Below are positions 2,098 through 9,884 of a DNA stretch of 64,000 nt, one piece after another; the first letter of the stretch is position 1; each line of letters starts with the position of its first letter. The notes below the pieces were generated by a model that worked only from the letters and a program-made list of their open reading frames with translations, was not told the DNA's origin and ran no database searches. Origin of the DNA: Escherichia coli O127:H6 str. E2348/69 (lineage in GTDB: Bacteria; Pseudomonadota; Gammaproteobacteria; Enterobacterales; Enterobacteriaceae); assembly GCF_000026545.1 (NCBI RefSeq), contig NC_011601.1; one strand, given 5' to 3'. A program made the translations under genes and the position numbers.

Positions 2098-3177
2098 TCA
2101 GCAATGGAACTCCATTACGCGGTTAATGGCAAATTGCAGATTATTATTATCAAACAGCCTCAACTTACGGCTGGCCCAGCGTTCGCCCGCAGGCCACTGG
2201 TGCAGCCCTTCCTTAACGGAGTCCAGCGTTGGTTGACATTCGCCACGGCTCAGCAACCAGTCTACGGTTGCCAGCAACTCCAGACCAAACGGCGATTCAA
2301 AGCCGTCAATTAACTGGCTGACCTGCTCCAGCGCAGGTAGCCACTCTCTGGCTTCGTTGTTCAGATACGCATTAACGTGTTCTTTTTTCTGATCGTTAAA
2401 CCAGATCACATCCAGCGGTTGGCTGTCCGGGATGCGTTTCTCGGCTTTAAGATAGGTGCCGTCCAGCGCATTAAGCAGATGGTTCAGATTGGGCGCATAG
2501 GGGCCATAATAGTGAGCTTCAAACCGCAGTTTGAGGATATCGTCCTGTTGATGCTGCTCAATGGCGCGTTGTAACAGCCAGGCCAGTTTCTGGATTTCCA
2601 GTAGGCTGCACTCCATCCCCAATACCCAGTAGCGACGCACCAGTTCAGCGATGGCGGCTCTGGCGGGAGTGAGCTTTTTTACGCCAGTGCTTTTGGCAAC
2701 GTTCTGGTATTTTTCAGTCGGTTGGTAAATCAGGATATCAACGTCCTGAAGGTCGCCAAGGGCAGATTCAATCTGCGCCCGAACGTCCGGCCAGTTCAAA
2801 CCACCGTTGCCTGCGCCCAGTGGTGGAATGGCGATGGACTGCACGTTCTCTTCAATCAAAAAGCGGCGTAAGTCCTGCAAGCCATCTTCAATCCACTCCA
2901 TGCGGGAATCAGCGCGCCAGTGCTGTTTGGTCGGAAAATTAACAATCCAGCGCGGTCCCATCAGTTCCCCGGTTTCGGTAATGAACATTTTGCCGGTGAT
3001 CACCTGCTTTTGTTTGCAGGCGAGGGCATAGACTTTCATATTTTCGGGGAAGCGCTCTTTAAACATCAACGCGATGCCTTTCCCCATGACACCGACGGTA
3101 TTAACCGTATTCACCAGAGCTTCCACCGGTGCGTCCAGTAAATTGCCTTGTGTATATGTGATCATGAGAAGTACCAT
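2098..3177 (-). CDS. darG: DarG antitoxin (N-terminal macrodomain, ADP-ribosyl-DNA glycohydrolase)
   Basis: 359-aa ORF; macrodomain signature near N-terminus ([26 protein letters not shown]). Alternative ATG at 3165 gives a 4-nt ATGA overlap with the darT stop. Confidence 0.85.
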
Positions 3178-3818
3178 CCAGACCGTGTGTGAACGGACAT
3201 TGTTAGATTACGCTGAAACAGCCATTGTTCTAATTGTAACCTGACCTCTTCGCTGTAACAAATTATCCCATCCAGCAGAGAGATCGGGCAGTGTTGCCAG
3301 ATTAGCGCCTCTGCCTGATAGCGTTCAAATTTAGCCGGATCGTCTGGATCGCGGCGAAAGTCCCGTGCCTGCAAAATGGGCCAGTCGATCTGGTCCAGAC
3401 TATTCAGACTGGTGTAGTAGTTGGTCCAGTTATAGTAAGCATGGCTGTCGGTAAACACGAAGGGCACGTCGTGTGCTGCCACGTTCCGCAAGTTGCTGAC
3501 CAGAATAACGATCTCCTCATTGGGGCGTCGCTTAATGCCGCCGCGCCCGCTGTGGATGTTCATCAGCATTGGCGAGAAGGGGGTAAAATAAAACGGCACA
3601 TAGTCATGCAGTGTCCCGCCCGTTCCGACAGGTACCGGATGCCCGGCACGCTTGCCGATCAGCTCCGGGTTGCCGATATTGATCCAGTTTTCCGCCTGCA
3701 CCAGACTGTTGCCGCAGTGCAGCCCGTTATCCAGAATCCACGGGATATTGTCCCGATGGACGATACGCCAGATCAGGGCTTTTTGCGGGTTGAGGCTGGC
3801 GCTGTAGTCATAGGCCAT
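3162..3818 (-). CDS. darT: DarT toxin (DUF4433 ssDNA thymidine ADP-ribosyltransferase)
   Basis: 218-aa ORF immediately upstream of and overlapping the macrodomain gene; size and sequence as recalled for enteropathogenic E. coli DarT; ATG at 3816-3818. Confidence 0.82.
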
Positions 3819-3829
3819 AGGTTTCCCTT

Positions 3830-5191
3830 CTATATTAAGCGGGTTTTCCCGGTTAACAACTCCTGCATCATCCCCTGTTTAAGCTGACGGGTTTTGTCCA
3901 GACGCTGTTGCAGGGTCTGAATTTCCTTGTCCATATCGGAGAGGATGGTGGCGATGGCGGTTTGTTCTTCTTTTGGCGGAAATGCAAGATGTAATTTCCT
4001 GATAATAGTAAGATTCAACCCACCACGCCCCCCATCACCAGTAGATAAACTTCTCAGTTCCTCATAACGACTGTCGAGGTTATAGAACAGGAATTCTGTG
4101 GAATGATGTTTGCTGGGGAAAATCGCAGCAATAGACTGATTAGTACATAATTCAATGCGATTAATTGCTACAGTCCCTCGAGTCTTTCCTTGTCCTGCCA
4201 ATCCGACTAATACAGAATTTTTAGGCACATACTTTGTACTGGAGTTAACAAGCCCTTCGTCGGTTATATAATCGGCTACAGCATACACCTGTTTTAGGTG
4301 TAATTCGCCGGAACTCATCCAAGGATGAGTTCCTCCCCAATATGCTGAAATTTTAGTACTCGGAGTTCCACCAGCACAGCAGTCAGTAAATTGTCCAATG
4401 CTTGTGACTACCCAATCTTCAGGAATCGCCCCCAACTCGCTCTTTTTATATCCCTTAGCAGAGCCATCTTTGCGCAACGCAAACTGTGGCAAACGGGTTT
4501 TACCAGTCAGTAGTTGCTGCATTGTGGCAGTTTTGATGGACTGTTTTTTTGAGAGTAATTTTTCTAGGGATAGAATCAAGCTATCAACATTGGTTAATAC
4601 ATTAGCAATAGCCTTTTGCTCTACGATATTTTTCGGTATAGATATGCATAACTTCTCTAAAACTGAACGTTTAATCCCTTGGGCCGTTGAACCAGTCGCG
4701 CTTTCAGAAATATATGATTGAAAACGCTCTGATAATAAGATTTGGAGTATTAGTGATGGAGAAAAATTCTCTCTATCTATTTGTAAAAGAATTGTTCTCT
4801 GGCTAAGAATATATTTTTTGTTATCAGGAATAGATGCTGCATTCCCCAGAGGGGCTTCCATTGTGAAAGCTATGTCCCCTTTTTGGGGATGACCGGATGT
4901 CATCCAGCGCTTATATAGTTCTTCGGAACCAAAGTAACATTCAGTAGATAAATCTATATATCCTTTTTTAACATTAGCAGCAGAAAGGGCAACGATATCC
5001 CCATCCCCCCAATCCATTCCAAGTTTTTTGGGAGTTCTGCCGCGATAATCAATTATGTTGGTTGTCAGGTTTAATATCGTGGATACAACCCAATCCTCAG
5101 GAATCATCTCCATCTCAGTCAGCTTATACCCCGCAGGCACACCTTTCCCCACCGTACCCGACCGTTGCTCATTCAGCATTAAATCCACCAT
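3830..5191 (-). CDS. hsdS: Type I R-M specificity subunit (HsdS), two target-recognition domains
   Basis: ~453-aa ORF with the conserved LTGKTRL repeat after each TRD; ATG at 5189-5191 overlaps the hsdM stop by 1 nt (track start 5197 is an alternative GTG). Confidence 0.88.
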   Translation of the reverse strand: MVDLMLNEQRSGTVGKGVPAGYKLTEMEMIPEDWVVSTILNLTTNIIDYRGRTPKKLGMDWGDGDIVALSAANVKKGYIDLSTECYFGSEELYKRWMTSGHPQKGDIAFTMEAPLGNAASIPDNKKYILSQRTILLQIDRENFSPSLILQILLSERFQSYISESATGSTAQGIKRSVLEKLCISIPKNIVEQKAIANVLTNVDSLILSLEKLLSKKQSIKTATMQQLLTGKTRLPQFALRKDGSAKGYKKSELGAIPEDWVVTSIGQFTDCCAGGTPSTKISAYWGGTHPWMSSGELHLKQVYAVADYITDEGLVNSSTKYVPKNSVLVGLAGQGKTRGTVAINRIELCTNQSIAAIFPSKHHSTEFLFYNLDSRYEELRSLSTGDGGRGGLNLTIIRKLHLAFPPKEEQTAIATILSDMDKEIQTLQQRLDKTRQLKQGMMQELLTGKTRLI

Positions 5192-7629
5192 CACCACTCC
5201 AGCCCCATCGCCCGCAAATGCCCGGCCACTTTCTCGCTCAACGCCTCAACGGCGGCTGCAAGTGCTGGCAACGGTTCAGCATAACGCTCTTCCAGCTCCT
5301 TTACGCGCGACGCCAGTTGCTGGGTAATACGCTCTATCTCCGCTTTGATCCCTGCCTGCAATGTTGCCAGCCACTTATCCTGCACTACCAGCGTTTTAAT
5401 CGCTGCTTCATCCAGCGTGGGATAATGTTTAAATACCGCTCGATCCAACGCTTTCTGTGCGGCTTTTAGCGCTTTTTTCGCACTGGCCTCGGCCTTAATC
5501 AGCGCCAGACAGCGGTTCAGCACTGCCAGCTCATCCGGGTCGGCAGGGGTTTTCTTCAACTGTGCCAGACGGGCATTCACCAGCTTTTGCGTCACCTTAT
5601 CTTTATCGTTTTTCGCCTCAGCCAGCAGATCCTCTTCCCCTGCCTGCTCCTCGATGAATTCCACTAGCTGACGACTGGCTTCTTCACTACGCTCCTGCGC
5701 GCGGTTCAGCGCATCCAGCAGTTCCGGGAAACAGCGAATTTCCACCAGCGAACGGGGCAGCACATCGGCCTTGTAGCGCCGTTTGGTAAACTCGAAATCG
5801 TGCGTTTCTTTCCAGATGTTTTTGCCATCTTTGCCTTTCACCGGCTGAAGCTCGCGGATTTGCGCGGCGGCTTGCCAGCCATCCTGCATAATCACATACA
5901 CATCGTCCTGCATGACATCAGCCCAGTAATCCATCAGGATCTGGTACACGCTGTATTTGTTCAGCAACTCACTGTTGGCGTACTGCGCCAATAGCATTTC
6001 GCTGATATCGTGGATTAGCGCTTTGGGTTTATCTCCTTTGCGGATCTCTTCCAGACCTGCCTCTTTTACCCACGACTTAAACGGTAGCAGGCTGCGGGTG
6101 GCAAAATCCTTAAACTCCTGATGAGCCAGAATGGTCGGTTTCACCTGCTGAGCGTCCACTTGCGCCCGGCAGTAACCGGGGTGGTCGTCAGCAAACAGCA
6201 CATTACGCAGGGCAGGGAATACCCGCCAATAATCCTTCAAAGCATCTACATCGCGCACTGGAATACCGCCTTGTAAGTGCGCGGTCAGATCGTGCAAATC
6301 TTCCGGCTCTCCACTCTCGATATAACGAGGAATATTCAGGTTGTAATCATTCCCGGCGATCTCGCTGGAGGGCACCATCCGGCTGTAGCCTGGCACCGTT
6401 CGCTGATGGTTGAACACGTCCACAATACGGTGAATATCTTGGCTACGCAGGCGGTTCTTGTTGCCATCTTTGATAAAGCCCCGACTGGCGTCGATCATAA
6501 AAATGCCTTTGCGGCTGTGGGCGTGCTCTTTATCAATCACAATGATGCACGCCGGGATGCCGGTGCCGTAAAACAGGTTGGCTGGCAAACCAATAACGCC
6601 TTTGATATAGCCCTGCTTGATTAGGTTTTCACGGATATTCGCTTCGGCGTTACCGCGAAACAGTACGCCGTGGGGCAGGATTACCGCGCCTTTGCCGGTA
6701 CTTTTCAGGCTTTTAATGATATGCAACAAAAAAGCATAATCGCCGTTTTTTTCCGGCGGAATACCCCAGCCGAAGCGTTCAAACGGATCTTTTTTTGGCG
6801 TCAGCCCGTTGGTCCAGTTTTTATTGGAAAAAGGCGGGTTCGCCACGGCAAAATCGAAGGCTTTCAGTTTGCCGTTCGCCTCTTTCCACTGCGGATCGCT
6901 CAGCGTATTGCCCTGCCAGATTTTCGCGGTGGCATTGTTATGCAGAATCATGTTCATCCGCGCCAGCGCACTGGTAGCGTTATCCATCTCTTGGCCGAAA
7001 ATCGACAGTCCGCGCCGGGCTTCATCATTCACTTTCAACAGCAGCGAACCAGAGCCACAGGTTGGGTCATAAACCGTTGCATCTCGCGGCGTATCGGGAG
7101 TAATACCAATCACCTTCGCCAGAATACGTGACACCTCCGCCGGAGTGTAAAACTGTCCTTTACTCTTGCCGGATTCGGTTGCGAAGTGACGCATCAGATA
7201 TTCATAGGCATCGCCCAGCAGATCGTCGCCTTCGACCCGGTTGCTGGAGAGATCTAACCCTTCAAAGATACCGACAAGCTTGCTCAGGCGGTCAATCATT
7301 TCCTTGCCTTTGCCGAGTTTATCTTCGTCGTTAAAGTCGGCTTCGTCGATGACGCCCTTCAGGCCGTTCTCTTCCGCCAGCTTGTGGATGATTTTGTTGA
7401 TTTTATCGCCGATCTCTTTGTCATTTTTCAGCGCAACCATATCGTCAAAGCTGGCTCCTTTGGGTATCACGATCATCCCGTAAGGATCGCCTTTATACTT
7501 ATCGGAAACGTACTTCATAAACAGCAGGGTCAGTACATAGTCTTTGTACTGGCTGGCGTCCATCCCGCCACGCAGTTCGTCGCAGCTTGCCCACAGGGAA
7601 GAATAGAGTTCGGTTTTTTTGATAGCCAT
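5191..7629 (-). CDS. hsdM: Type I R-M N6-adenine DNA methyltransferase (HsdM), unusually long (812 aa) with a C-terminal coiled-coil extension
   Basis: HsdM-type N-terminus (ELYSSLWASCDELRGGMDASQYKDYVLTLLFMKYVSDKY), SAM-binding FYTP and catalytic NPPF motifs; ~280 aa alanine/lysine/glutamate-rich helical tail. Confidence 0.88.
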   Translation of the reverse strand: MAIKKTELYSSLWASCDELRGGMDASQYKDYVLTLLFMKYVSDKYKGDPYGMIVIPKGASFDDMVALKNDKEIGDKINKIIHKLAEENGLKGVIDEADFNDEDKLGKGKEMIDRLSKLVGIFEGLDLSSNRVEGDDLLGDAYEYLMRHFATESGKSKGQFYTPAEVSRILAKVIGITPDTPRDATVYDPTCGSGSLLLKVNDEARRGLSIFGQEMDNATSALARMNMILHNNATAKIWQGNTLSDPQWKEANGKLKAFDFAVANPPFSNKNWTNGLTPKKDPFERFGWGIPPEKNGDYAFLLHIIKSLKSTGKGAVILPHGVLFRGNAEANIRENLIKQGYIKGVIGLPANLFYGTGIPACIIVIDKEHAHSRKGIFMIDASRGFIKDGNKNRLRSQDIHRIVDVFNHQRTVPGYSRMVPSSEIAGNDYNLNIPRYIESGEPEDLHDLTAHLQGGIPVRDVDALKDYWRVFPALRNVLFADDHPGYCRAQVDAQQVKPTILAHQEFKDFATRSLLPFKSWVKEAGLEEIRKGDKPKALIHDISEMLLAQYANSELLNKYSVYQILMDYWADVMQDDVYVIMQDGWQAAAQIRELQPVKGKDGKNIWKETHDFEFTKRRYKADVLPRSLVEIRCFPELLDALNRAQERSEEASRQLVEFIEEQAGEEDLLAEAKNDKDKVTQKLVNARLAQLKKTPADPDELAVLNRCLALIKAEASAKKALKAAQKALDRAVFKHYPTLDEAAIKTLVVQDKWLATLQAGIKAEIERITQQLASRVKELEERYAEPLPALAAAVEALSEKVAGHLRAMGLEW

Positions 7630-7668: not shown

Positions 7669-7914
7669 TTACAGCAGATCGGTATTCAGACCGGCGGCCT
7701 TTAACCGACGGGTTAAGTTACGCATTTTGCTGAATTCGGTACCGAGGCTCTGGCTCAGACCAGTGCCTTCGCAAAAGGCTTTTGCCGTAATGTGTTCCAG
7801 TTTGTCGGCATATTTAATCATTTGCAGGTGCAGCTCGACGGTGTACTGGTTACGAGGCGCACTGGAAAGTGCCTGCCGGATATGGCGATAAATCTCGTCT
7901 TCATCCATATTCAT
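7669..7914 (-). CDS. Small hypothetical protein (~81 aa) directly upstream of hsdM; possible regulator
   Basis: ORF co-oriented with hsdM and ending 40 bp before its ATG; likely start at internal ATG 7912-7914 (MNMDEDEIYRH...). The track N-terminal extension begins at a TTG and runs through the tandem repeat. Confidence 0.4.
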   Translation of the reverse strand: MNMDEDEIYRHIRQALSSAPRNQYTVELHLQMIKYADKLEHITAKAFCEGTGLSQSLGTEFSKMRNLTRRLKAAGLNTDLL

Positions 7915-7967: not shown

Positions 7968-9059
7968 GTGGTATCAGGTTCAAGAACTACAGTGGGAGTC
8001 GGATTTGACTGCGCGATTTATGCACGTAAATGCCTTGTGGCGGATTAATGGCTGCAGTATCTTCTCCTTCCGCGCCTGCAAAATCAGGCGTCAGAATTAG
8101 CCTCCTGAAAACCGTTACAGGAGACTTCTCTATAGACTACAATCCTTGTCCCTGACTGCGATTTACTCGATCTATTGTTCGTTCCCTTATAATGCCACTA
8201 TAGATTTTACCGCCTTGGTCGACAACTGCGCCCGCTTTGCCGAATCCCTGATAGAAACCTAGGATCTTGCGCTGTAGCTTACCCTCTGCGGGCGATCTTG
8301 TACTGCTGCAACTCACGCAACACGACCTCATCCCGCCGCATCTTAACGAAAGCCTGCTCAGTGATACTCTCCCCACCATGCCAGAGCAGGTTATTTCTGA
8401 ACCTGATTCTTGTGCGAATATTGCCTCGTGCGGGCTGTGCATCATCGCCGCTCTTTGATAAGAGGCGTCAAAGGTAAGGGGCGTAGCGTTATTAGTTTGG
8501 GCTATACACTTGCGCTACAACTCTTCAAATAGCTATATATCAACAATATTTAGCCATAAACCGTCTACTTCCGTCTCAATTATACTCAAATTAAGGCATG
8601 CGGCATCTTTGTGACACATTTGTTTTTTTTATACAGGTTAGAGTTGACCTGCTCTCCGTTGATTAACTCACATTGTTGTTAACCACGTCTACTTTTAGCA
8701 CGACACTGATGCGTTAACTGAGCGAATGGTCTGCTTTGAGCGAGGAACGGACGTTCGCTTTCGGGTAACCTAACCCATATGCCAGAGGATCTCTAAGAGA
8801 TAATGGGTCGTTTAAGCGTGGCACTTACAGTATCAACGCCTCCGCACCCGACAACGTCTTGACTGCTGCAGATTCACTGAATAGACTGGTGACCTTTATC
8901 TTCATTTTGCGTGCAGCAAAATAAAGTTTTTGACTTACGAAAATCGTCGATTCGACTTAATTATACTAAGGGTTTTATGCTGACTTTTCATTGTGGGATA
9001 CACTAAATTAGTGAGATGAGAATTTATCTAACTGTCATTAACATAAGTAGGATTTAAAA

Positions 9060-9428
9060 ATGGCTAATAGCGAAATTGTTCCGTTTTCTGAAATTGTTAC
9101 AAGCAAAATAGACCTCAATCAAGCTGTAGCTCAAGGTCAAGAGATGACTGATACTCTTAAAAAAATGGGTATCAAAGAAGCGACATTTGATAGTGGAGCT
9201 TACTATAAACATGATCACGAATCGCAGACCACTACTCTTGCAGCTGATGGAATCTTGATGCGGCAGAGCCTCCACATTACAACAGTTATTTTCCGTAACG
9301 AAGGAAGTACTGAACAACAAGCTTTAGAGGAGCTTAATGCTGGTTCTCTGACACAAAAAACCTTAGGTGCATTCTCTGGAGTCTCTCAACAGAGAGCGTC
9401 TGAGCTACTCCAAATTGAAAAAGAATAA
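9060..9428 (+). CDS. Hypothetical protein (122 aa) with a C-terminal helix-turn-helix-like segment
   Basis: ORF in a low-GC block; AGGA ribosome-binding site upstream; C-terminal TQKTLGAFSGVSQQRASELLQIE resembles XRE-type HTH. Confidence 0.5.
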   Translation: MANSEIVPFSEIVTSKIDLNQAVAQGQEMTDTLKKMGIKEATFDSGAYYKHDHESQTTTLAADGILMRQSLHITTVIFRNEGSTEQQALEELNAGSLTQKTLGAFSGVSQQRASELLQIEKE

Positions 9429-9497
9429 TTATAAATAGGTTAGTAACGGCAGTTTTCTGCCGTTACTAAGAGTATTTACTCAAAATTAGGGAGTATT

Positions 9498-9884
9498 ATG
9501 GGATTCAATGACCAGCCCAAAAACCTGAAAAAATCCATTAACGATAAATATAACAGAAGGGTAAAGTCACTTTCTCGGCATCTCGAGGATTTTATTTATC
9601 ATGCAGAAATGAAACTGGACGAATCTATTTCTGGAAGGATTTATCGCAGAAGCGAGATTGAGTCAATTGTTGAGAAAGTAAAAGAATTGATGGCTATCCT
9701 TCCGGCTTCAGATGAACCTCCTTCAATTAATTTTGATATTCTTGAAATCATTGAGAATGCAACAGAAGAAACTCAGCGCATTTTATCAGAAGGACAAAAA
9801 TTCTTCGACAACCTCTCTCCTGAAGAATTGGCAGAAATGATATCAACATTCCAACAAAATAAAAAAGATAGTGAATCTGAGTGA
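9498..9884 (+). CDS. Hypothetical protein (128 aa), acidic and predicted helical
   Basis: ORF 70 bp downstream of and co-oriented with the previous ORF; GGGAG ribosome-binding site; no recognisable motif. Confidence 0.45.
   Translation: MGFNDQPKNLKKSINDKYNRRVKSLSRHLEDFIYHAEMKLDESISGRIYRRSEIESIVEKVKELMAILPASDEPPSINFDILEIIENATEETQRILSEGQKFFDNLSPEELAEMISTFQQNKKDSESE

Follow-up and report, generated by a model that had tools for sequence, protein, structure and literature searches.

The long C-terminal tail of an Escherichia coli HsdM marks a widespread family of type I restriction-modification systems

Introduction

Models of the structure and mechanism of type I restriction enzymes are based on HsdM subunits with short tails, such as those of EcoKI, EcoR124I, and PacII, and the classical families IA to IE were set by genetic complementation, antibody cross-reaction, and DNA hybridisation. 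In PacII, the C-terminal tail of HsdM forms a four-helix bundle with the conserved regions of HsdS, and deleting it abolishes assembly (PMC9613975); the C-terminal tail of EcoKI HsdM likewise serves as the HsdS anchor (PMC2647291). The two HsdM subunits of canonical enzymes contact each other through their N-terminal and catalytic domains (PMC9613975).

Some type I loci are described as parts of defence systems. The EPEC RRDM island as a whole protects against phages (PMC12255303), and experiments have shown activity of the VPI-2 type I system, which methylates GATGN6CTT (PMC12409362; PMC11411939). In EcoprrI, the restriction complex keeps the cargo, PrrC, latent (10.1101/2024.01.29.577857). 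No described role for a long HsdM tail was found in the published literature, and the accessible portions of the papers on RRDM, VPI-2, and embedded defence systems, and of the Loenen review, do not discuss such a tail.

Here, I describe the tail of the 812-residue HsdM encoded in a window of 64,000 nucleotides (the whole stretch of DNA that was analysed) from E. coli O127:H6 str. E2348/69.

Results

The features of the locus are collected in Table 1. The hsdM product has 812 residues, as the initial annotation had stated, and is 100% identical to WP_000985463.1, the RefSeq 'type I restriction-modification system subunit M' of E. coli E2348/69. Its assignment as a type I HsdM rests on an HsdM_N domain, on a gamma-class N6-adenine methyltransferase domain that carries the previously noted motifs FYTP (residues 160-163) and NPPF (264-267), and on the presence of hsdS and hsdR in the same locus. 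It scored 280.8 bits against TIGR00497 (hsdM), above the curated equivalog cut-off of 242.75, with a match restricted to residues 71-444. The PADLOC model MTase_I PDLC03027 (1425 bits) aligned residues 1-812 to model positions 1-810, which places the protein among long-tailed HsdMs with residues 445-812 included, and matches to PDLC03022 and PDLC03031 likewise extended to residues 806-809. By sequence, the protein is nearer to PacII, 3LKD, and EcoR124I than to EcoKI. Because solved HsdMs measure 445-544 aa, plus one of 638 aa, it exceeds textbook HsdMs by ~290-310 aa, which bears out the earlier impression of an unusually long subunit.

Table 1. Coordinates of hsdM, its parts, and neighbouring genes within the window.
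Feature	Coordinates	Strand	Basis
hsdM, 812 aa + stop, WP_000985463.1	5191..7629	(-)	ORF; RefSeq annotation; TIGR00497; PADLOC MTase_I PDLC03027
HsdM N-terminal domain, residues 10-121	7267..7602	(-)	Pfam PF12161, E 2.6e-17
N6-adenine methyltransferase catalytic domain, residues 135-441	6307..7227	(-)	Pfam PF02384, E 9.6e-104
Tail part 1, residues 445-625, conserved mixed alpha/beta subdomain (predicted)	5755..6297	(-)	AlphaFold2 pLDDT >90; conserved residues
Tail part 2, residues 626-784, long-helix arm (predicted)	5278..5754	(-)	
Tail part 3, residues 787-807, terminal helix, proposed HsdS-docking	5209..5271	(-)	Conservation; natural fusions
hsdS, 453 aa, two recognition domains	3830..5191	(-)	Pfam Methylase_S, two stretches; RefSeq annotation
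darT, embedded cargo	3162..3818	(-)	Pfam DarT, E 2.5e-53; NCBIfam toxin_DarT, 262.6 bits
darG, embedded cargo	2098..3165	(-)	NCBIfam antitoxin_DarG, 451 bits; Macro domain
hsdR, N-terminal ~693 codons	1..2079	(-)	RefSeq annotation; Pfam HSDR_N, SWI2_SNF2, T1R_D3-like
rptR, 79-aa HTH-like repressor of the island	7669..7908	(-)	RefSeq annotation; Pfam HTH_73; characterised in PMC12255303

The initial annotation had placed the end of the methyltransferase core at residue ~520 and had marked 5191-6050, which corresponds to HsdM residues 527-812 plus the stop codon, as a ~280-aa coiled-coil extension. The core in fact ends earlier: Pfam N6_Mtase stops at residue 441, TIGR00497 at 444, and the alignment to the HsdMs of PacII, 3LKD, and EcoR124I is reliable until ~450, directly past NIPRYIESGEPED. 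Because all of these end at ~441-450, the extra module comprises residues ~445-812; it is thus real, but with ~360-365 aa larger than proposed. Past the catalytic domain the chain runs on for about 365 residues, where canonical short-tailed HsdMs carry ~35-60.

A domain search of the tail, which had been suggested at the outset, gave nothing credible beyond residue 444 in Pfam and NCBIfam, with either the whole protein or the tail alone as query. Pfam detected neither Methylase_S nor another domain in residues 445-812, so that the protein is not an HsdM-HsdS fusion or a single-chain type IIG/ISP enzyme. No solved structure of the tail was found: the best match to PDB sequences, using the tail or a 29-sequence tail profile as query, had an E-value of only 0.08, residues 450-812 had no PDB match, and Foldseek searches of the PDB with the whole HsdM model matched the core alone.

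AlphaFold2 modelled full-length HsdM with a pLDDT of 94.1 and a pTM of 0.91, and the tail alone with a pLDDT of 92.5 and a pTM of 0.82. Residues ~445-812 are confidently predicted to fold autonomously into a conserved C-terminal module, in place of the canonical tail of 35-60 residues. Part 1 is aromatic-rich and conserved, with predicted helices and strands, and has no Pfam or PDB match. It opens with a near-invariant AHLxGGIPxxD...YW and includes a YDVYQxLMDYWxxxMQDD block; H451, G454, G455, P457, W468, W520, Y559, Y562, Y568, W569, D575, D576, and W585 are near-invariant. In part 2, antiparallel helices (626-662, 698-738, and 741-784) and a turn region (663-697) whose length differs among relatives make up an acidic arm that is about 60 Å long in the predicted structure and variable in the length of its tip. 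The terminal helix of part 3 comes after a conserved ERYxxPLPxL turn and ends in HLxxMG, with R782, Y783, L787, V801, H804, L805, M808, and G809 conserved around it. AlphaFold2 gives helices of 28, 41, 44, and 21 residues for ~626-812, where Ala, Glu, Lys, Leu, Arg, and Gln make up 60-72% of the sequence. The helical peptide quoted in the initial annotation, AEASAKKALKAAQKALDRAVFKHYPTLDEAAIKTL, is found there at residues 713-747. The coiled-coil description fits the composition of ~626-812 but not the mixed alpha/beta residues 445-625. Across the family, the tail has a median net charge of -18 and a median pI of 5.0; the idea of a DNA-binding tail was rejected on account of this acidity, which makes protein binding likelier.

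The tail is very widespread. It was recovered in 2,362 cluster representatives at E ≤ 1e-3 and in 1,277 at E ≤ 1e-10, counted as protein clusters at 50% identity from bacteria and methanogenic archaea, and at least 557 matches were found in species-representative genomes, again with methanogenic archaea among them. Within the best 120 of 933 word-index matches, the tail followed the N6_Mtase core in every protein long enough to span the region ahead of it, and it had the same placement in Pfam-scanned relatives. Related genome loci were gathered with a 6-sequence tail alignment; the hsdM products have a median length of 817 aa, and 62 of the 65 complete genes encode 793-1020 aa. Even a Streptococcus homologue of 854 aa aligned to the very end of the tail. 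With a dN/dS of ~0.08, compared with 0.03-0.05 for the core, the tail is under purifying selection. These data also bear on whether the long ORF could be an annotation or assembly artefact, created by read-through of hsdM or by fusion with a downstream gene. Solely the unusual length relative to EcoKI or EcoR124I speaks for this, and its probability is negligible: this ORF runs uninterrupted in 248 E. coli genomes and likewise in hundreds of species, the junction at residues 441-480 is among the most conserved regions of HsdM, and the predicted structure is continuous and confident. An artefactual fusion is refuted by the conservation data.

The long tail characterises a type I family that is widespread and horizontally mobile and to which the E. 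coli locus belongs. The family includes the experimentally active EPEC island (PMC12255303) and a V. cholerae VPI-2-like locus. Since the length is normal in so widespread a family, the 812-aa HsdM is no oddity of E2348/69, though it is uncharacterised. The initial annotation had considered the case in which this length is normal in a well-characterised type I subfamily whose tail has a known role; the length is indeed normal in a large subfamily, while no published role of the tail was found.

The E. coli locus is the published RRDM defence island with DarTG as its cargo, and it has the layout of the family, hsdM(long)-hsdS-(cargo slot)-hsdR-YgjP-like metallopeptidase. The hsdM stop codon and the hsdS start codon share one base (TGATG), an overlap that couples the two genes translationally and counts in favour of a tail lying near HsdS. 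hsdR continues past the start of the window (full HsdR, 1031 aa), and the next gene, outside the window, encodes a YgjP-like/M48 peptidase (YgjP-like, E 1.4e-61). The order hsdM, hsdS, hsdR was constant in 60 related loci, and a YgjP-like gene immediately followed hsdR in all 54 assessable loci of the tail family. The slot between hsdS and hsdR was occupied in 44 of the 60 by GmrSD, Schlafen/HATPase, ABC ATPases, DarTG, Fic, SMODS, or other genes, and cargo was absent, with a gap of at most 300 bp, in eight. A tail specific to DarTG loci was ruled out, as the tail occurs with other cargo or with none.

Natural gene fusions bear on the position of the tail. In 8 of 109 aligned relatives (P0133, P0148, P0150, P0154, P0167, P0180, P0182, and P0192), the last helix of the tail leads through an 'LLTG..RLPGF' linker into an HsdS recognition domain, one per protein, and a conserved-region helix. 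In loci L008 and L073, the fused gene is followed by hsdR and the peptidase gene, with no separate hsdS. These fusions of HsdM, tail, and half an HsdS bring the C-terminus of the tail next to HsdS; they demonstrate compatible chain ends and not a binding interface. An hhalign comparison of the tail profile with the HsdS of the locus, asking whether the terminal helices came from the HsdS conserved region, gave no signal, and the terminal helix resembles the canonical C-terminal tail, or an HsdS conserved-region helix, in position only.

By analogy with canonical enzymes, I consider it somewhat probable, at slightly better than an even chance, that this tail takes over HsdS anchoring from the short canonical one and also provides an arm for protein interaction, most plausibly with HsdR. 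Its terminal helix or helices would dock on the coiled coil of the HsdS conserved regions, as the canonical tail does, and would in this way anchor the M2S1 methyltransferase; a protein-protein surface absent from canonical enzymes would come from the globular part and the arm. I infer both the docking position and the partner of the arm. Among the contacts that the initial annotation had suggested, the one with HsdS gains indirect support from the canonical anchors, the fusions, and the two loci lacking hsdS, whereas HsdR or the YgjP-like peptidase is hinted at by co-divergence only.

The fused relatives, which have a single recognition domain, are probably dimers, comparable to half-S homodimers (PMC3874165). 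This, and the long amphipathic helices of the arm, would suit a homo-dimerisation coiled coil that joins two HsdM subunits or two complexes. I find such a role improbable: in the confident AlphaFold2 monomer the tail helices pair as intramolecular hairpins and therefore leave little coiled-coil surface unsatisfied, and the canonical M-M contact is made by other domains (PMC9613975).

In 46 distant loci, tail divergence followed HsdR (Spearman 0.90) better than the protein's own catalytic core (0.71), with a partial rho of 0.79 when the core was controlled for and most of the signal in the globular part (0.77), although these correlations use a single reference, ignore shared phylogeny, and may simply be better for faster-evolving segments. 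The partial rho was 0.39 with the HsdS C-terminal conserved region and 0.67 with the peptidase, and the arm alone reached 0.63 with the peptidase. Taken at face value, the weaker co-divergence with HsdS points to partners other than HsdS. Together with the acidity of the module, this pattern would fit a tail that is mainly an HsdR-docking or -regulating arm, which would bring in or place the motor subunit or act as a gate between methylation and restriction, with HsdS anchoring secondary. Such an emphasis is possible but on the whole doubtful, given the limits of the correlations and an HsdR of ordinary length and domain layout with no obvious new partner domain; it is also compatible with an HsdS-anchor role.

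The constant peptidase gene, the frequently filled slot, the arm-peptidase co-divergence, and the PrrC precedent in EcoprrI (10.1101/2024.01.29.577857) would also accord with a platform for the YgjP-like/SprT-like metallopeptidase or the cargo, coupling the state of the complex to proteolysis or effector release. This is unlikely, as cargo is so diverse and sometimes missing that a specific docking site for each is implausible, and the link to the peptidase consists of gene linkage and co-divergence, not physical association. The distant Streptococcus homologue cuts both ways: no YgjP-like gene lies directly downstream of hsdR in its hsdM-hsdS-hsdR locus, and yet the tail is there.

Discussion

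The tail is a ~360-residue module with neither a Pfam family nor a solved structure, in a very widespread and mobile type I family. Defining it would yield a new domain family, would explain how long-tailed complexes assemble, and possibly also why a YgjP-like peptidase is constant and embedded defence cargo frequent. For this window, the outcome mostly amends the earlier description: such a length is usual in the family, and the tail is no simple coiled coil. A bolder view, to which I assign a low probability, is that three features, the long tail, the YgjP/SprT-like metallopeptidase to which it is invariably linked, and the cargo slot, define a distinct type I architecture with the arm as a signalling or docking element. 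The arm might then bring in the peptidase so that restriction complexes on DNA are cleared or inactivated, as a built-in device for restriction alleviation or turnover, or it might signal that the complex is inhibited and so unleash embedded effectors such as DarT.

The closest solved HsdMs are PacII M1/M2 (PDB 7VRU/7VS4) and the S. thermophilus HsdM (3LKD), which share the N-terminal and gamma-class N6-adenine methyltransferase domains at ~32-33% identity (phmmer E 2e-76 to 1.5e-74; Foldseek E ~1e-30) and likewise partner with a two-domain HsdS. They differ by ending 35-55 residues past the NIPRY motif, in a short C-terminal tail that becomes part of the four-helix bundle with HsdS, and no more than half of the E. 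coli model is matched by Foldseek (TM-score normalised to query ≤0.50). The HsdMs of EcoR124I (type IC; E 1.3e-64) and EcoKI (type IA; E 5.8e-22) agree in subunit role, domain order, and catalytic motifs, but are only 520-529 aa long; no YgjP-like gene is known from their loci.

The type IIG/ISP enzymes BpuSI (3S1S), DrdV (7LO5), and BsaXI (8W0P) have a helical connector between methyltransferase and recognition domain, which the fused relatives resemble in carrying the tail between these two. Their structural matches are restricted to the core (TM-score normalised to query 0.32-0.34), and the E. coli HsdM, in contrast, has no recognition, nuclease, or ATPase domain. EcoprrI-PrrC is similar in having an accessory defence gene in the hsdS-hsdR slot; coupling of cargo to the restriction complex belongs to EcoprrI, while DarTG is likened to PrrC by gene position. 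The V. cholerae locus has an hsdM with the tail (57% tail identity), hsdS, two GmrSD-like genes, hsdR, and a YgjP-like gene. It is likened by gene layout to the VPI-2 type I system (VC1769-VC1765), which differs from the E. coli island in that its embedded cargo is TgvAB and not DarTG.

Locus and extent of the HsdM tail

The 812-aa HsdM (WP_000985463.1) belongs to an operon-like block on the minus strand, rptR-hsdM-hsdS-darT-darG-hsdR, and the genome record of E2348/69 shows a YgjP-like/M48 metallopeptidase gene after hsdR. This block has been published as the RRDM defence island (RptR, R-M system, DarTG2, M48), which protected E. coli from several phages when cloned; the RRDM paper says nothing about HsdM length or its C-terminus (PMC12255303). 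The hsdM stop and hsdS start share one base within a TGATG, which suggests translational coupling of the two genes. RefSeq uses an ATG for hsdS, and the ORF listing gives a GTG 6 nt upstream. Two small ORFs with no annotation other than "hypothetical protein" lie in the AT-rich stretch upstream of rptR (GC 0.36-0.40 vs ~0.51 around it), which is followed by remnants of IS3, IS66, and IS30.

Features of the locus (positions in the window)
Feature	Position	Strand	Description
AT-rich stretch	~8500-10500		upstream of rptR
Small ORF	9498-9884	plus	"hypothetical protein"
Small ORF	9060-9428	plus	"hypothetical protein"
rptR	7908..7669	minus	79-aa HTH-like repressor
hsdM	7629..5191	minus	812 aa
HsdM core	6298-7629		HsdM before the tail
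TGATG	5189-5193		hsdM stop/hsdS start
hsdS	5191..3830	minus	453 aa
darTG	2098-3818		occupant of the cargo slot
darT	3818..3162	minus	DarT toxin
darG	3165..2098	minus	DarG antitoxin
hsdR	2079..off window	minus	full protein 1031 aa

The initial annotation had described a ~280-aa coiled-coil extension, corresponding to HsdM residues 527-812, behind a core ending at ~520. The ORF bears out the length of 812 aa, the FYTP and NPPF motifs are both present, and the helical peptide that had been quoted lies at residues 713-747, but the core end was placed too far downstream. The Pfam N6_Mtase match ends at residue 441, the TIGR00497 match at residue 444, and the alignment with solved HsdMs is reliable up to ~450, directly after NIPRYIESGEPED. 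This leaves ~445-812, about 365 residues, as the non-canonical part (hereafter the tail), at a position where canonical HsdMs (EcoKI, EcoR124I, PacII, 3LKD) have a tail of 35-60 residues. The proposed size, unlike the boundary, comes near the net excess of ~290-310 aa over the solved HsdMs compared, which are mostly 499-544 aa long.

Predicted fold of the tail

AlphaFold2 predicted the whole HsdM with a pLDDT of 94.1 and a pTM of 0.91 (109-sequence alignment), and the tail by itself with a pLDDT of 92.5 and a pTM of 0.82 (29-sequence alignment); on these models the tail is predicted to be a folded module and no floppy low-complexity appendage. Three parts can be distinguished in the predicted structure. 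Residues 445-625 form a mixed alpha/beta subdomain rich in conserved aromatics, built from short helices (448-478), a beta-hairpin (479-489), helices (493-589), and strands (591-621), and carrying two signature blocks, AHLxGGIPxxD...YW and YDVYQxLMDYWxxxMQDD. Residues 626-784 comprise long predicted helices at 626-662, 698-738, and 741-784, and in the turn at 663-697 relatives have up to ~90 inserted alignment columns, the pattern expected of an exposed hairpin tip. A terminal helix (787-807) follows a conserved ERYxxPLPxL turn and ends in HLxxMG. The term coiled coil may be fair for roughly the last 185 residues alone, and the remainder of the tail is mixed alpha/beta.

The domain search that had been proposed for this region found no Pfam or NCBIfam model that matches the tail, and a PDB sequence search with the tail, profile included, returned no match; in Foldseek, the best match to the tail was no lower than E 0.07. 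One relative with a complete tail, P0124 (799 aa, N-terminally truncated), continues into a further C-terminal region of ~310 residues that had no Pfam match.

Long-tailed HsdMs are widespread and under purifying selection

HMMER, run exhaustively over 1.84 billion cluster representatives, detected the tail in 2,362 of them at E<=1e-3 and in 1,277 at E<=1e-10. A word-index search gave 933 matches, which were more redundant; in the best 120 of these, an N6_Mtase core preceded the tail wherever the protein was long enough to tell. Scanning one genome per species yielded at least 557 confirmed matches, and those listed include Gamma-, Alpha-, and Deltaproteobacteria, Campylobacterota, Cyanobacteria, Planctomycetota, Chloroflexota, Nitrospirota, Gemmatimonadota, Poribacteria, and three methanogenic archaea. 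Plasmid matches extend the range to Rhodococcus (Actinomycetota) and Bacillota, and an 854-aa HsdM of Streptococcus salivarius is 31% identical to the E. coli protein over residues 3-808.

By the length distribution, a tail of this length is normal within a large family: the 65 complete hsdM genes encode a median of 817 aa, and 62 of them fall between 793 and 1020 aa. The PADLOC model MTase_I PDLC03027 (810 positions) matched the E. coli HsdM end to end, and database models of this type include the tail implicitly; the lengths of the remaining MTase_I models lie between 410 and 1236 positions. Given this median and this spread, the "typical" 500-530 aa of the initial annotation is right for the classical model enzymes and does not describe HsdMs at large. 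In a few species genomes (loci L023, L035, and L082) the tail-bearing ORF has just 483-600 aa, and these hsdM genes are probably frameshifted or split.

The tail is under purifying selection, since its dN/dS against Edwardsiella, Dickeya, and Enterobacter orthologues is ~0.08, compared with 0.03-0.05 for the core. Among the conserved parts of the system it nevertheless diverges fastest: averaged over 46 distant loci, its identity to the E. coli sequence is 0.53, behind the peptidase (0.57), the HsdS C-terminal helix (0.64), HsdR (0.67), and the HsdM core (0.79).

A four-gene chassis and its cargo slot

Eighty fetched loci (L014-L093) were examined with the E. coli proteins as seeds for phmmer and hmmsearch, and the gene order was invariant, hsdM-hsdS-...-hsdR-YgjP-like peptidase. 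The YgjP-like/SprT-like peptidase gene lies directly 3' of hsdR in 54 of 54 assessable loci, bacterial and archaeal, and of 60 loci, 44 have more than 1 kb between hsdS and hsdR and just 8 have <=300 bp. From this order and these intervals, the long-tailed family is a chassis of four genes that includes a slot for cargo. Twelve loci carry an insert of >300 bp between hsdM and hsdS. The core of the E. coli protein is 74-78% identical to those of the methanogenic archaea (L066, L070, L092), and identity across bacterial phyla is 74-88%; values so far above the expectation for vertical descent point to the whole chassis having spread horizontally, recently and over a wide range.

Cargo is very diverse across the slots of related loci, and includes Schlafen-AlbA2/HATPase_c_4 proteins paired with large ATPases, GmrSD-type enzymes, AAA_21/ABC ATPases, DarTG, Fic, NucS-like, KAP NTPase, SMODS, and Zeta toxin. 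The annotated slot of an IncC Citrobacter plasmid contains a TrlF ATPase and an RNA-binding protein, that of a Rhodococcus plasmid a TIGR02391 protein, and metagenomic loci with an empty slot were seen. A V. cholerae contig reads hsdM(tail)-hsdS-two GmrSD-like genes-hsdR-YgjP-like; the VPI-2 T1RM/TgvAB cluster, whose activity has been shown by experiment, is arranged in this way (PMC11411939, PMC12409362). A tie between the tail and DarTG, the E. coli cargo, was ruled out, because the tail occurs with other cargo and with an empty slot; it is independent of DarTG and a property of the chassis.

A proposed role for the tail

Each HsdM of a canonical enzyme has a short C-terminal tail that packs on the conserved-region coiled coil of HsdS; in PacII the two form a four-helix bundle, and the complex no longer assembles when the tail is deleted (PMC9613975). 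The C-terminal domain of EcoKI HsdM (residues 470-529) is likewise required for assembly (PMC2647291). Natural fusions, which place the C-terminus of the long tail next to HsdS, were found in 8 of 109 aligned relatives (P0133, P0148, P0150, P0154, P0167, P0180, P0182, and P0192). Here the last helix of the tail continues directly into an 'LLTG..RLPGF' linker, which leads to one HsdS recognition domain and a conserved-region helix. The C-terminus of P0192, KQGMMQELLTGRTRLI, is nearly the same as that of E. coli HsdS, and two such loci (L008 and L073) have the fused gene without a separate hsdS. Such fusions probably work as homodimers that recognise palindromic targets.

I infer that the tail docks on HsdS, its terminal helices likely being the equivalent of the canonical HsdS anchor. 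The tail would then amount to a ~330-residue insertion that separates the catalytic domain from the HsdS-docking helix, supplying a globular subdomain and an acidic arm. Across the tail family the median net charge is -18 and the median pI 5.0, and this predicted negative charge speaks for contacts with protein and against binding to DNA. The arm may act towards HsdR, the peptidase, or the cargo. Controlling for the core, the partial rho of tail co-divergence was 0.79 with HsdR, 0.67 with the peptidase, and 0.39 with the HsdS helix, which suggests, as a lead from a crude test confounded by phylogeny and rate differences, that the tail tracks HsdR and the peptidase more closely than the HsdS helix.

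Comparison with known HsdMs

Judged by all sequence-level criteria, the E. coli protein is a bona fide HsdM, and its island is functional (PMC12255303). A literature search for a long HsdM tail found no paper describing one. The tail is real, conserved, and without a published description. It is no anomaly of this gene, since a large family has it as its norm, and it is a good target for domain definition and for a complex structure. A more striking pattern than the tail is formed by its companions, the invariant peptidase and the cargo slot. The E. coli HsdM departs from structurally characterised HsdMs in lacking their short C-terminal tail: the nearest solved structures (PacII M1/M2, 3LKD, and EcoR124I HsdM) cover only its first ~450 residues, and reach a TM-score normalised to the query of <=0.50 against its model.
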